64,000 bases of DNA from Escherichia coli. Lineage in GTDB: Bacteria; Pseudomonadota; Gammaproteobacteria; Enterobacterales; Enterobacteriaceae. The DNA is taken from assembly GCF_016026235.1 (NCBI RefSeq), contig NZ_CP065613.1; one strand, 5' to 3'. The notes beneath the pieces were generated by a model, which was given only the letters and a program-made list of their open reading frames with translations, did no database searches and was not told the origin of the DNA. Below are positions 46,425 through 53,984 of this stretch, piece by piece (the first letter of the stretch is position 1; each line of letters opens with the position of its first letter). Position numbers and translations under genes: made by a program.

Positions 46425-46580
46425 TTACTCCTCAGGTTCGTAAGCTGTGAAGACAGCGACCTCCGTCTGGCCGGTTCGGATTCGTACCTCGCAGAGGTCT
46501 TTCCTCGTTACCAGTGCCGTCACTATGACGGTTAAACAGATGACGATAAGGGCGATTAACATCGCCTTTTGCTGCTTCAT
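46425..46580 (-). CDS. hokD: Hok/Gef-family type I toxin (HokD-like)
   Basis: 51 aa MKQQKAMLIALIVICLTVIVTALVTRKDLCEVRIRTGQTEVAVFTAYEPEE; overlapping 70-aa mok-like frame 46425..46637. Confidence 0.85.
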   Translation of the reverse strand: MKQQKAMLIALIVICLTVIVTALVTRKDLCEVRIRTGQTEVAVFTAYEPEE

Positions 46581-46839
46581 AGCCTGCTTCTCCTTGCCTT
46601 TCGGCACGTAAGAGGCTAACCTACATGTGTTCAGCATGGATTGAGCCTCAGATTAATGTTAAGCGTCTTGCAGGACGCGTAATGTTAACTGGGGCTTTTC
46701 TCTATCTGCCTTTTGGTGTTCATGCCTGAGACAGATAGCCTCAAGCACCCGCAGTCATTCTACTTAACTAAGATTTCCCTGCAAACCGTTTTTGTCCGGC
46801 ACAGTAAATATCCAACTAAACCAATAGCGTTCGCTGTAT

Positions 46840-50115: not shown

Positions 50116-50282
50116 TCAACAGAACCAGAGGAGGTTCGACATGTCTTTTTTGAAAAGCCTTTATCGGGCTCATATATTAAAAGTTGCAGCAACAAATCAC
50201 TGGCAAGAAGGAACAGATGAAATGTTGCCGGATTACCGGGCATGGCTGCGCGCCGAAACATACCTTCGTCTCGATATGCTGA

Positions 50283-50792
50283 TTAACGATCTTCAAAAAG
50301 AGGCTCCATCCACTCAAACCCTTCAGGGTGTCGGCGCTGTTCGCGTTCTGGTATCTCGCCATAACGCTCTCTCAGTAACTGAAGTGCGTCAGCTTTCTTT
50401 TGCTGAACTGATTTTCTTGCTTCAGCCAGCTCTGGAATCAGTGAATATCCCATCGGAGGTGTTCCGGTATCCGCCCCACGTGAACCAACAGCTACAAGCT
50501 GCACAAGACAACAGGCATGCTGGATTGACTCCCTGCTCAGAGGCTGAATGGGATCATTCTCTGCTGAAGAGATACCAAGATTTGTATAATCCTCAATAAG
50601 CCGGGCGCACGCTTCAGCATCAGCCAGTTTTTTTCTGGTTTCCTTGCGCTGTTCTCTGACGGACAAACGCCAGAGCAGCGCATTGGCTTTATGCATCAGC
50701 CACTCTGCCAGTTCCACATCAGATAAACCGCCACGCCAGATGTGTGGACTGTTTTCGTAAACGCTCAGTGTCAGTTTTTTGTCATTGGTCAT
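50283..50792 (-). CDS. hypothetical early protein
   Basis: 169 aa from ATG 50792 following ydaT-like gene; overlapping plus-strand ORF 50141..50599 is the alternative. Confidence 0.4.
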   Translation of the reverse strand: MTNDKKLTLSVYENSPHIWRGGLSDVELAEWLMHKANALLWRLSVREQRKETRKKLADAEACARLIEDYTNLGISSAENDPIQPLSRESIQHACCLVQLVAVGSRGADTGTPPMGYSLIPELAEARKSVQQKKADALQLLRERYGEIPEREQRRHPEGFEWMEPLFEDR

Positions 50793-50805: not shown

Positions 50806-51231
50806 TCAATGCACAGCCAGAGTATTTCCTGCCGGACCACCACGATTCATCTGATCGAACAGAACGATCGCTGATGCAACGAAATCATCGATATCTTTCA
50901 CCAGCTGTTCCTGCGTCTCCAGCAGTTCCCGAAAATAAACTGAACTGTGGCTGCGCATTCGGGCCACCAGCGGAGGCGGCATTGCCTTTTCGATCGCTGG
51001 TAACAACGCCTGAATTTTTTTAACAGCATCAGGGGTGTCTTTCTCTATCCAGCGGAAAATTTTCTGGGTATTGCGAGCCAGGGCTTCCGGATGGCTGTCG
51101 TCGTACAGTTCAGGGAACGTCATCCCCAGTTCGAAATAAGTCCGGGCTATCTCAGCCGCCGGAACTTTCTCACCATCAGGATATGCCCATGCATTCATCG
51201 CCATACGGATGTGCTCATGCTTGATTTTCAT
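50806..51231 (-). CDS. YdaT-like protein (Rac prophage family)
   Basis: 141 aa, N-terminus MKIKHEHI as recalled for YdaT. Confidence 0.6.
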   Translation of the reverse strand: MKIKHEHIRMAMNAWAYPDGEKVPAAEIARTYFELGMTFPELYDDSHPEALARNTQKIFRWIEKDTPDAVKKIQALLPAIEKAMPPPLVARMRSHSSVYFRELLETQEQLVKDIDDFVASAIVLFDQMNRGGPAGNTLAVH

Positions 51232-51491
51232 GAATCACCCCCCGCCGATGGTTGTGTGTTAGCCTGAAACTCAGCAGGCAAGCCGTCAGTTGGGTTGGGG
51301 TAGGTTTTACTGTCAATCTCATGTGGGGTCACCACCCATCCCGTTGCTTCACACCAACGTAATATTTTTTCTCCTGTAAGTTTTGCACGCCCCGTTATAA
51401 CGTGGCTGACCATCCCCTGGGATGCGCCAACAATCTCAGCAAATGAACTCTGGGTTATATGAAAATGATGCAAATATTCTCCAAGATTCAT
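51228..51491 (-). CDS. Cro/YdaS-like HTH regulator
   Basis: 87 aa from ATG 51491, HTH (QSSFAEIVGASQGMVSHV), divergent from repressor. Confidence 0.65.
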   Translation of the reverse strand: MNLGEYLHHFHITQSSFAEIVGASQGMVSHVITGRAKLTGEKILRWCEATGWVVTPHEIDSKTYPNPTDGLPAEFQANTQPSAGGDS

Positions 51492-51527
51492 AATCCGCCC
51501 TATGTGATGTGTTACCAACGCATAATT

Positions 51528-51568
51528 AATAGCACTGTTATTTTTGAAAGTAAATAGCGATGCTATTT
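51528..51568. promoter_or_regulatory. putative operator sites between repressor and cro-like gene
   Basis: perfect palindrome AAATAGCGATGCTATTT at 51552..51568 plus half-site AATAGCACTGTTATT. Confidence 0.55.
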
Positions 51569-51602
51569 CAAAGTGATTAGCAATCTTATTAGAATTGGAT
51601 GT

Positions 51603-52103
51603 ATGAAAAGAAAATCACTGTCAGACACCGACCTCAACGCCGCCAGAAGACTGAAAGAAATCTGGATGGCAAAGAAATCTCAGTTGGGATTGACTCAGGA
51701 ACGTGCGGCGGAAATTATGGGGTTTTCAACACAAGGGGCGGTAAGTCACTACCTAAATGGTCAAACCCCACTAAACCTTGAGGCTGTTCTAAAGTTTGCT
51801 GGCTTACTGAAAGTTCCCCCTGAGTCAATCAGGCCAGACATGGCAGATTTGCTGCAAATTGCAAGGATGTATTGTCGAGAACCACAGCAAGATAACATAG
51901 TCGCATTACCAGCAGACACAGAACAAACAGAGGATGAACTACCGTTTGCCGTAGAGCCGATGGAACGAGATTTAATCCATACGTTCAGAGCTTTTCCGAA
52001 AGAAGATCAAGAACACATGCTTCAGGAGATGAAAGATAAAAAAGAATCAATGGATCGTACGGTTGCGCGGTGGTTAGCTGCACAAAAAGGCCGTCGCGCC
52101 TAA
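51603..52103 (+). CDS. XRE-family HTH repressor (RacR/PaaR2-like)
   Basis: 166 aa from ATG 51603, N-terminal HTH (LTQERAAEIMGFSTQGAVSHYL). Confidence 0.7.
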   Translation: MKRKSLSDTDLNAARRLKEIWMAKKSQLGLTQERAAEIMGFSTQGAVSHYLNGQTPLNLEAVLKFAGLLKVPPESIRPDMADLLQIARMYCREPQQDNIVALPADTEQTEDELPFAVEPMERDLIHTFRAFPKEDQEHMLQEMKDKKESMDRTVARWLAAQKGRRA

Positions 52104-52122
52104 ATCAGAGGAGATATGTAAA

Positions 52123-52317
52123 ATGAGTACAGTCCTTTCCCCAATGGTTTCAGAATTTGAGACAGTTGAGCAAGAAAATAGTTACAACGAATGGCTGCGG
52201 GCCAAAGTAGCAGCAAGCCTCGCGGATCACCGCCCGGCGATTCCGCATGATGAGGTAATGGCGGAAATGGAACAAATTATTGCCCAAATTGCTGCTGCAA
52301 CTCACAGAGGTGAATAA
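52123..52317 (+). CDS. type II antitoxin (PaaA2-like)
   Basis: 64 aa acidic protein immediately upstream of and overlapping ParE-like toxin. Confidence 0.65.
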   Translation: MSTVLSPMVSEFETVEQENSYNEWLRAKVAASLADHRPAIPHDEVMAEMEQIIAQIAAATHRGE

Positions 52318-52607
52318 TGTTACCCGTTTTATGGCTACCATCTGCTCGTGATGATTTGCGCCAGATCGTAGCCTACATAGCTAAAGAAAATCCCGCGGCA
52401 GCACGCAGAATGAAAATTCGAATTGAAACATCCGTTTTGCCGCTCACAGAGCATCCTTACCTGTATCCTCCAAGCGAGCGAGTTCTTGGTCTTCGTGAAA
52501 TTGTAACTCATCCTAACTACATCATCCTTTACCGAGTAACAGCATCAAGCATAGAAGTAGTAAATATTGTGCATTCTCGAAGACAGTATCCAGGCAAAAA
52601 CAGTTAA
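52317..52607 (+). CDS. ParE/RelE-family type II toxin
   Basis: 96 aa, RelE/ParE-like sequence features, 1-bp overlap with antitoxin. Confidence 0.7.
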   Translation: MLPVLWLPSARDDLRQIVAYIAKENPAAARRMKIRIETSVLPLTEHPYLYPPSERVLGLREIVTHPNYIILYRVTASSIEVVNIVHSRRQYPGKNS

Positions 52608-52622
52608 TTATTCCCGCCGACA

Positions 52623-52646
52623 GAACCACCTTAGGGTGGTTTTTTC
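52623..52646 (+). terminator. Rho-independent terminator after toxin gene
   Basis: GAACCACC-TTAG-GGTGGTT followed by TTTTTC. Confidence 0.65.
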
Positions 52647-52659
52647 TTGCTCCAACAAA

Positions 52660-52705
52660 AAACAATAGCGATGCTATTTACATCAAAAAATAATGATGCT
52701 ATTGT
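52660..52705. promoter_or_regulatory. putative OL operators / early-left promoter
   Basis: AATAGCGATGCTATTT palindrome repeated, with second half-site AATAATGATGCTATTG. Confidence 0.5.
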
Positions 52706-52882
52706 TTCAGGCGTCAACCCACCCCGCCCCACAGAATGCAGGGCAATACTTCGAGTTACCAGGTAGTGGTCAGGGGGTAAGTAGCCAGCCCGAGGCGTAA
52801 GAACATGACGGCAGGGTTCAACTTTAACTATGCAGCAGGTTTTTGTTCCGCTCCCCCGGCGTTAAGGGGAAATGAGGTCAAC

Positions 52883-53038
52883 ATGGATACTATCAATCTT
52901 GGCAACAACGAATCTCTGGTGTGCGGCGTGTTTCCCAACCAGGACGGCACGTTCACCGCGATGACGTATACCAAAAGCAAAACGTTTAAAACCGAATCTG
53001 GAGCGCGTCGCTGGCTGGAAAGAAATTCAGGTGGGTGA
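52883..53038 (+). CDS. DUF1391 small protein (YdfA/YdaF-like)
   Basis: 51 aa from ATG 52883; size and position match Qin ydfA. Confidence 0.55.
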   Translation: MDTINLGNNESLVCGVFPNQDGTFTAMTYTKSKTFKTESGARRWLERNSGG

Positions 53039-53757: not shown

Positions 53758-53815
53758 TTTCTGGTGACGTTTGGCGGTATCAGTTTTACTCCGTGACTGC
53801 TCTGCCGCCCTTTTT
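53758..53815 (+). ncRNA. dicF: DicF-like sRNA
   Basis: TTTCTGGTGACGTTTGGCGGTATCAGTTTTACTCCGTGACTGCTCTGCCGCCCTTTTT matches recalled DicF; lies just upstream of dicB. Confidence 0.6.
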
Positions 53816-53984
53816 AAAGTGAATTTTGTGATGTGGTGAATGCGGCTGAGCGCACGCGGAACAGTTAAAACCGAAAACAGTGTTATGGGTGGATTCTCTG
53901 TATCCGGCGTTAATTGTTAACTGGTTAACGTCACCTGGAAGCACCAGGCACCGCATCACAAAACTCATTGTTGAGGGCGCGATA

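Follow-up and report, generated by a model that had tools for sequence, protein, structure and literature searches.

The window considered here, a stretch of 64,000 nucleotides of Escherichia coli DNA (contig NZ_CP065613.1 of assembly GCF_016026235.1), very probably carries a heteroimmune member of the PaaR-PaaA-ParE family of toxin-antitoxin (TA) systems of type II, which is embedded in the immunity region of a lambdoid prophage at tRNA-Ser and acts as an addiction module. The system comprises three consecutive genes for a regulator, the antitoxin PaaA, and the toxin ParE. The original prediction described a helix-turn-helix repressor followed by a 64-amino-acid antitoxin and a 96-amino-acid toxin with a 1-bp overlap and then a terminator, and all open reading frames (ORFs) and coordinates are as claimed (Table 1). 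Three-component systems of this kind are already known, and the one in the window is an ordinary member that introduces no new principle. New is the allele only, with its lambda-CI-like head, its own operators, its own Cro-like partner, and its place in an apparently intact Shigella-type prophage.

Identity of the Toxin and the Antitoxin

The best family match of the toxin is Pfam ParE_toxin (PF05016; E 2e-17), and alignment with the solved ParE2 chains 5cw7_B and 5czf_C gives an identity of ∼67% (E 7e-37). The NCBIfam model of the RelE/StbE family, TIGR02385, scores 29.3 bits, barely over its cutoff of 27.9. Similarity to ParE/RelE proteins, which had been set beforehand as a test of the toxin assignment, is hence found with both models. 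The antitoxin aligns with the PaaA2 structures 3zbe and 5cw7 (E 2e-22) and scores 91.7 bits against NCBIfam NF050103, with a cutoff of 50. Its sole Pfam match is the PaaA2 family PF21217 (E 3e-21), a motif of 33 residues, and because nothing else in Pfam matches, the antitoxin is devoid of a DNA-binding domain. The resemblance to PaaR2-PaaA2-ParE2 that had been proposed from the gene layout is thus borne out by the sequence searches.

The closest relative of the TA pair is one copy from E. coli O157:H7 (locus L003 of strain 86-24), with identities of 77% for PaaA and 86% for ParE. We infer that this copy represents the PaaR1-PaaA1-ParE1 locus of CP-933M, since the other type, locus L004 of ATCC 25922, matches PaaR2-PaaA2-ParE2: its antitoxin and toxin equal the PaaA2 and ParE2 sequences in the PDB, and its regulator begins with MQKKE, as published for PaaR2.

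The Regulator

Residues 2 to 82 of the regulator, including the N-terminal arm, align with the N-terminal domain of lambda CI (1lmb; E 1.3e-9), and residues 103 to 166 form a helical tail of the PaaR type, which is 56% identical over 64 amino acids to the C terminus of the inferred PaaR1. All TA-linked regulators examined share the motif ELLQxFxAFPEEDQ...KKESM...ARWLAAQKxRRA. Judged by these alignments, the regulator is an evolutionary chimera of a lambda-CI-like head on the conserved C-terminal ∼60 residues of PaaR. It resembles the PaaR proteins in gene order and in having the PaaR C-terminal domain, but it differs from them in the type of its N-terminal DNA-binding domain.

Pfam recognizes only HTH_3/HTH_31 in the regulator and detects no S24 peptidase domain in its 166 amino acids, for which reason a true CI/S24 repressor was rejected. 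Lacking this domain, the protein is not expected to undergo RecA-mediated cleavage, as has been published for PaaR2. An orthologue of DicA was rejected as well: the NCBIfam DicA profile (NF007257) reaches 32.2 bits with a cutoff of 101, and its alignment is confined to the C-terminal domain, with profile residues 74 to 130 matching regulator residues 106 to 162. In direct comparison, the tail shows 29% identity over 51 amino acids with DicA of the Qin prophage (E 2e-6). Qin has no TA pair, and the presence of a distant version of the tail in its DicA led to rejection of the idea that this domain is specific to TA-bearing loci. Published work on the O157 systems found no PaaR-PaaA-ParE ternary complex (PMC4803016). 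Given these two observations, the tight conservation of the C-terminal domain is most simply explained by its linkage to the TA genes.

By position and homology, the regulator is presumptively the CI equivalent of the prophage. The original prediction, which took the regulator for the prophage repressor and placed the TA pair in the rexAB position, is correct in this respect; the same arrangement has already been published for CP-933P, where paaA2-parE2 stands in place of rexAB and PaaR2 in place of CI (PMC8630535, PMC9986795; Prolic-Kalinsek et al. among the authors). PaaR2 is a functional analogue of CI in that prophage (PMC8630535).

Operon Layout and Transcription

The stop codon of paaA and the start codon of parE have one base in common (gaaTAATGtta). 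Between the regulator gene and paaA lie 19 bp, within which there is a GGAG sequence and neither a terminator nor a promoter. The terminator hairpin behind parE has a folding free energy (dG) of −15.4 kcal/mol and a z score of −3.65 relative to shuffled sequences. A consensus scan finds a promoter-like hexamer pair inside the regulator gene (positions 51690 to 51718), and the number of promoter-like sites around the operon is at the chance level (4 found versus 2.9 expected). The homologous O157 operon is cotranscribed from the paaR promoter (PMC4803016). Together with this precedent, the 19-bp gap, the 1-nucleotide overlap, and the single terminator after parE, with none between the genes, suggest that the regulator, paaA, and parE are cotranscribed from the regulator promoter.

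Operators and Promoters

The 15-mer AATAGCGATGCTATT occurs exactly at positions 51553 to 51567 and 52664 to 52678 and nowhere else in the 64 kb, as expected from the earlier report of the same palindrome on both flanks of the genes. Three sites with at most one mismatch to AATAGC-N3-GCTATT are present versus 0.13 expected, all of them flanking the operon, and none of 100 shuffled sequences reaches three. Two weaker copies, starting at 52689 and 51576, carry 2 and 3 mismatches, respectively. The window-wide count of sites at 2 to 3 mismatches is not above chance, and the significance of the operators rests on the exact and ≤1-mismatch copies and on their clustering and placement.

On the side of the regulator start, the three copies of the right operator (OR) are spaced 25 and 23 bp apart, and their half-sites are kept in the sibling locus of E. 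coli O104:H4. On the other side, the left operators (OL) overlap the −35 element TTTACA and the extended −10 element TGcTATTGT of a site resembling the left promoter (PL), TTTACA-17-TGcTATTGT (positions 52677 to 52705), which reads into ydfA-ydfB-ydfC-dicF-dicB. The putative right promoter (PR), read on the minus strand, mirrors PL in a 40-nucleotide inverted repeat of 78%. Both predicted lytic promoters have operators over their −35 and −10 elements.

The predicted maintenance promoter of the repressor (PRM) ends 7 nucleotides before the regulator ATG, and no Shine-Dalgarno sequence precedes this codon; both features make a leaderless message probable, as for lambda cI and PaaR2, for which leaderless translation has been demonstrated (PMC8630535). 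The exact OR copy is centered ∼43 nucleotides upstream of the ATG, and the weak third site overlaps the PRM spacer. Repressor bound at the exact operator near −43 may activate PRM.

Mosaic Boundaries, Distribution, and Selection

The TA pair lies within an exchangeable immunity cassette, as follows from comparison with a TA-less phage. Phage vB_EcoM-606R7 aligns with 73% of the early region with an identity of 96% and encodes a 214-amino-acid cI that is unrelated to the regulator in the window, with no TA pair; homology ends at 51238 and returns at 52715, so that positions 51239 to 52714 are replaced. Relative to the inferred CP-933M locus, the replaced part is 51303 to 51975, which covers the N-terminal portion of ydaS, OR, and the head of the repressor; from the repressor tail (51976) onward through parE and farther, DNA identity is ∼80%. 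The slot ahead of paaA-parE is filled by at least four regulator arrangements, namely, the 166-, 133-, and 123-amino-acid types and a tandem pair in strain 2013C-4974. In this last strain (locus L010, positions 669 to 1532), two PaaR-type regulators with PaaR2-like and inferred-PaaR1-like heads follow one another. Both keep the C-terminal motif, and the altered C terminus of the second overlaps paaA; the tandem looks like a product of recombination via the conserved tail.

The TA family is found in 841 of 5,426 complete E. coli genomes, and the present immunity type is found in 71 of them, all 71 with the TA pair and with coverage of at least 80% of the whole 1.7-kb module. RMDEC465 is the only near-identical genome (98.9%), the other 70 being siblings of ∼80% with the same operator half-sites. 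The exact toxin sequence occurs on at least 1,000 contigs, the exact regulator on 39, and the exact antitoxin on 30, with near-identical versions of the latter two on at least 1,000; these contigs are mostly from Shigella sonnei, and the proteins are annotated generically. A near-identity search with positions 51200 to 52900 in 50,697 phage records matched only the downstream ydfA leader, and by protein, the only phage record with a close ParE homologue is phage Evi.

All three genes show dN/dS ratios (nonsynonymous to synonymous substitution rates) of 0.05 to 0.10 relative to relatives with dS values of >1, with 0.05 to 0.06 for the toxin. Such low ratios indicate that the genes are maintained by strong purifying selection.

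Neighboring Genes of the Immunity Region

Divergent from the operon lie ydaS, which is specific to the present immunity type, and ydaT. YdaS is 85% identical to its counterpart in the O104:H4 sibling and 36% identical to that of the inferred CP-933M type, has no detectable similarity to YdaS of the PaaR2-type locus, and covaries with the repressor head. YdaT shares 82% identity with its counterpart in the PaaR2-type locus. The published YdaT site is TTGATT-N6-AATCAA, with the OM site of CP-933P at the equivalent position (PMC9986795); the predicted YdaT operator of the window matches it with one mismatch and is the only match in the window at ≤1 mismatch. Replication genes lie beyond ydaT.

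After the terminator and OL follow ydfA, ydfB, ydfC, the DicF RNA, dicB, ydfD, a RecE-type exonuclease gene, and the integrase gene. The order ydaT-ydaS/regulator-paaA-parE/ydfA...dicB-exonuclease is common to the O157, ATCC 25922, O104:H4, and uropathogenic E. coli loci and phage Evi. The repressor probably also silences the cell division inhibitors downstream of PL. A 200-amino-acid ORF on the minus strand (53786 to 54388), which overlaps dicB and ydfD and has no family match, was discarded as spurious.

Two further elements of the region were noted. The leader between PL and ydfA (positions 52715 to 52880), which starts with CCCACCCCGCCCCACAGAA, is conserved at 89 to 98% in every related locus regardless of immunity type and has no match in Rfam; it may hold a nut-like site or an RNA element. 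A 152-amino-acid ORF on the plus strand (50141 to 50599), overlapped by an antisense ORF of 186 amino acids, lies between a replication gene and ydaT. Its position and DNA homology make it the counterpart of the “ECs1072 family phage-associated protein” in the O157 locus; neither PHROG nor PADLOC yields a match to it, and the otherwise near-identical RMDEC465 locus lacks it.

The Host Prophage

A 31-bp direct repeat, TGGCGGAGAGAGGGGGATTTGAACCCCCGGT, at positions 14184 to 14214 and 58223 to 58253 equals the 3′ end of tRNA-Ser(cga) and brackets an element of ∼44 kb, whose integrase gene (57155 to 58195) adjoins the tRNA. The repeats are probably attL and attR of the TA-bearing prophage. The element also holds Q, RusA, four tRNAs, and lysis genes, and its morphogenesis block resembles that of the myovirus phiP27 (68% coverage and 94% identity). 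The prophage is lambdoid, with an early region like those of Rac, Qin, and CP-933P and a phiP27-like late region, and it is apparently complete. Past the tail fiber genes and inside the att-bracketed element lies a gene for an IpaH-family E3 ubiquitin ligase, an effector of the type III secretion system. Its listed ORF has 447 amino acids and a TTG start and may be N-terminally shortened. The presence of ipaH points to a Shigella-type host.

Several other features of the prophage stand beside the operon. A second addiction-type module on the minus strand (46425 to 46750) comprises a Hok-family toxin ORF (46425 to 46637) and a sok antisense RNA (46575 to 46750; Rfam RF01794, 118.9 bits). The closest relative prophage, in RMDEC465, carries an additional pair of the ParD/ParE family in its nin-like region (locus L001, positions 1275 to 1837), the equivalent of which in the window (∼46 to 48 kb) has hok/sok and small ORFs of no assigned function instead. 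The four tRNA genes, Gly-tcc, Thr-tgt, Lys-ttt, and Met-cat, lie on the minus strand (43365 to 43674) between the Q antiterminator and the lysis genes. Rfam matches to rseX, IS009, and CssrB (“chromosome-encoded Shigella sRNA B”) at 5341 to 5430, 14635 to 14838, and 15595 to 15774, respectively, fall in the flanking chromosome and at the cargo end of the element.

Table 1. Features of the repressor-TA operon, the immunity region, and the host prophage, numbered from the first nucleotide of the window
Feature	Position	Strand	Details
PaaR-like regulator gene	51603..52103	+	166 aa from ATG
paaA antitoxin gene	52123..52317	+	64 aa
parE toxin gene	52317..52607	+	96 aa
Intrinsic terminator of the repressor-TA operon	52622..52650	+	hairpin 52622-52643, 9-bp stem, then T-run
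OR, three predicted operators	51528..51590	.	51528-42 (1 mismatch), 51553-67 (exact), 51576-90 (3 mismatches)
Predicted PR	51526..51554	-	TTTACT-17 nt-TATTAA, TGc ahead of -10
Predicted PRM	51567..51595	+	TTCAAA-17 nt-TAGAAT, ends 7 nt before ATG (consensus scan)
OL/PL	52664..52705	+	operators 52664-78 (exact), 52689-703 (2 mismatches)
ydaS, Cro-like HTH regulator, specific to the present immunity type	51228..51491	-	87 aa; PHROG 35, E 2e-16
ydaT, CII-like activator	50806..51231	-	141 aa; PHROG 163 'CII-like transcriptional activator', E 9e-45
Predicted YdaT operator TTGATTTTCATGAATCAc	51221..51238	.	across the ydaS stop/ydaT start overlap
DicF small RNA	53759-53810	+	Rfam, 76.7 bits
dicB	53985-54173	+	downstream of PL, as in Qin of K-12
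ydfD/DUF1482 gene	54170-54358	+	downstream of PL, as in Qin of K-12
Gene for IpaH-family type III secretion effector, E3 ubiquitin ligase	16200-17543	+	NCBIfam NF046045, 564 bits, above cutoff

Relationship to Known Systems

The best-described relative is PaaR2-PaaA2-ParE2 of CP-933P, a cryptic prophage of E. coli O157:H7 (Hallez 2010; Sterckx 2016; Jurenas 2021 [PMC8630535]). There, PaaR2 competes with YdaS for the operators of OR and of the OL/PL equivalent, YdaS and YdaT being the analogues of Cro and CII (PMC8630535, PMC9986795). YdaT acts as the activator of a PRE-like promoter, PaaA2 is degraded by ClpAP/ClpXP, and the locus, which is bistable, stabilizes plasmids through postsegregational killing (PMC8630535). 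The window shares with CP-933P the order of the three genes, their site in the immunity region, facing ydaS-ydaT and followed by PL/ydfA, and the published overall layout ydaT-ydaS/OR/regulator-TA/OL-PL/ydfABC-dicF-dicB. Besides the toxin, the first 50 residues of the antitoxin (∼85% to PaaA2), YdaT with its operator motif, the C-terminal domain of the regulator, and the leaderless-type layout of PRM are alike. In contrast to the 166-amino-acid regulator of the window with its lambda-CI-like head, that of CP-933P has 123 amino acids and an unrelated N-terminal DNA-binding domain; its operators are repeats based on GTTTAGTAA instead of AATAGC-N3-GCTATT. The C-terminal tail of the antitoxin differs as well, YdaS is dissimilar, and the prophage of the window is apparently complete, whereas CP-933P is cryptic.

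The inferred CP-933M locus of strain 86-24 has the closest characterized TA pair, but a replacement covers the N-terminal part of ydaS, OR, and the regulator head, and its OL operators are not the same. Cross-protection between PaaA1 and PaaA2 does not occur (PMC4803016), and cross-neutralization between the window allele and the O157 alleles is consequently not predictable.

With cI-rexA-rexB of lambda, the window has in common the CI-like repressor head, three OR sites between divergent PRM and PR promoters, OL sites at PL, a leaderless-type start, and accessory genes that follow the repressor on a predicted common transcript and are succeeded by a terminator. Unlike CI, the repressor lacks an S24 (LexA-like) C-terminal domain; a type II TA pair takes the place of RexAB as the cargo, and the equivalents of Cro and CII are YdaS and YdaT. 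The Qin prophage of E. coli K-12 with DicA/DicC shows the identical downstream operon ydfA-ydfB-ydfC-dicF-dicB-ydfD-exonuclease and a regulator in the same position but no TA pair between dicA and ydfA, so that the layout of the window equals that of Qin plus a TA pair after the repressor. The classical ParD-ParE systems of RK2, Caulobacter, and Vibrio are related through the ParE/RelE fold of the toxin. They differ in that the antitoxin of the window is not a ribbon-helix-helix ParD and is regulated through a separate repressor, and gyrase inhibition is not established for the ParE2-type subgroup.

Proposed Mechanism and Alternative Explanations

Addiction is the likeliest role of the TA pair by analogy with CP-933P. 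Here, the regulator, translated from a leaderless PRM transcript, would probably bind AATAGC-N3-GCTATT at OR and OL and shut off PR (ydaS, ydaT, and replication) and PL (ydfABC-dicF-dicB-exo-int), and from the operator near −43, it may stimulate its own promoter. The PRM transcript would continue through paaA and parE to the hairpin at 52622 to 52643, and the lysogen would keep producing an antitoxin that is labile and a ParE-type toxin that is stable. Upon loss or exchange of the immunity cassette, the supply of antitoxin would end, the freed toxin would arrest or kill the cell, and the prophage and its immunity region would thereby be stabilized. YdaT, as a CII-like protein at 51221 to 51238, would probably provide the establishment promoter.

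Several points weigh against this interpretation. Expression, DNA binding, and toxicity of the window allele are extrapolated from its homologues; this applies above all to operator occupancy and PRM activation, since the head, the operators, and YdaS differ from those of the studied PaaR1 and PaaR2 systems. PR goes undetected in the strict consensus scan, as its −10 element has an A at position 6. ParE2 induces SOS and yet is reported neither to bind GyrA59 nor to inhibit gyrase. The repressor has no S24 autoprotease, and neither a LexA box nor an antirepressor was found in the window; the only match in the search for LexA boxes, made to detect an antirepressor under SOS control, is noncanonical, lies far off at 17626, and is at the chance level.

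The reported lack of GyrA59 binding and of gyrase inhibition by ParE2, together with the marginal TIGR02385 score, would also suit an mRNA interferase that depends on the ribosome, as RelE does, in place of a ParE-like poison of DNA topology. This is unlikely for a toxin whose best family match is Pfam ParE_toxin and whose nearest solved relatives are ParE proteins, given that ParE2 colocalizes with the nucleoid and induces SOS (PMC8630535). It is quite improbable that the TA pair primarily serves as a Rex-like device for superinfection exclusion or abortive infection that is produced from the lysogenic promoter and set off by an incoming phage when it halts host transcription or breaks down PaaA, with addiction as a side effect. 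The pair does fill the rexAB slot downstream of the repressor on the lysogenic transcript, and this slot is empty in the closely related phage, as expected of an accessory “moron”; against exclusion, none of the three proteins matches a PADLOC defense model, and the literature on the homologue demonstrates postsegregational killing and reports no phage defense phenotype. A broader proposal, in which PaaA-ParE is Rex-like and triggered by heteroimmune phages, the PaaR C-terminal domain, PaaA, and ParE form a portable block fused by recombination to unrelated heads, and the system locks an ipaH prophage that is not SOS inducible into Shigella sonnei, is doubtful to a similar degree.

An ordinary two-gene ParDE or RelBE module with its own promoter and autoregulation, standing by chance behind an unrelated regulator, is very unlikely. 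The hexamer pair inside the regulator gene could serve as such a promoter, and the PaaA-ParE complexes of the O157 systems alone repress partially (PMC4803016), but the antitoxin consists of no recognizable domain other than the PaaA2 motif, the 19-bp gap is free of terminators and promoters, promoter-like sites are at the chance level, the conserved recombination block spans the regulator C-terminal domain through parE, and the homologous operon is cotranscribed from the paaR promoter. That the locus is a decaying, nonfunctional remnant, as might be suspected from the cryptic prophages that house the best-studied homologues, is the least credible of these explanations in view of three intact ORFs, dN/dS ratios of 0.05 to 0.10 to relatives with saturated dS, the wide occurrence of the exact toxin sequence, and a host prophage that looks complete.

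Significance

The addiction cargo PaaA-ParE is not peculiar to the two cryptic O157 prophages. It occupies a fixed slot in lambdoid immunity regions of 841 of the 5,426 complete E. coli genomes, where the repressor heads ahead of it are of several unrelated kinds, and in the window, it belongs to a prophage that carries ipaH, is apparently complete, and is common in Shigella sonnei. These loci represent a natural series of heteroimmune alleles that is usable to test the published idea that the TA pair polices the immunity cassette against recombination and loss, as well as to ask whether it helps to retain a prophage with a virulence gene such as ipaH.

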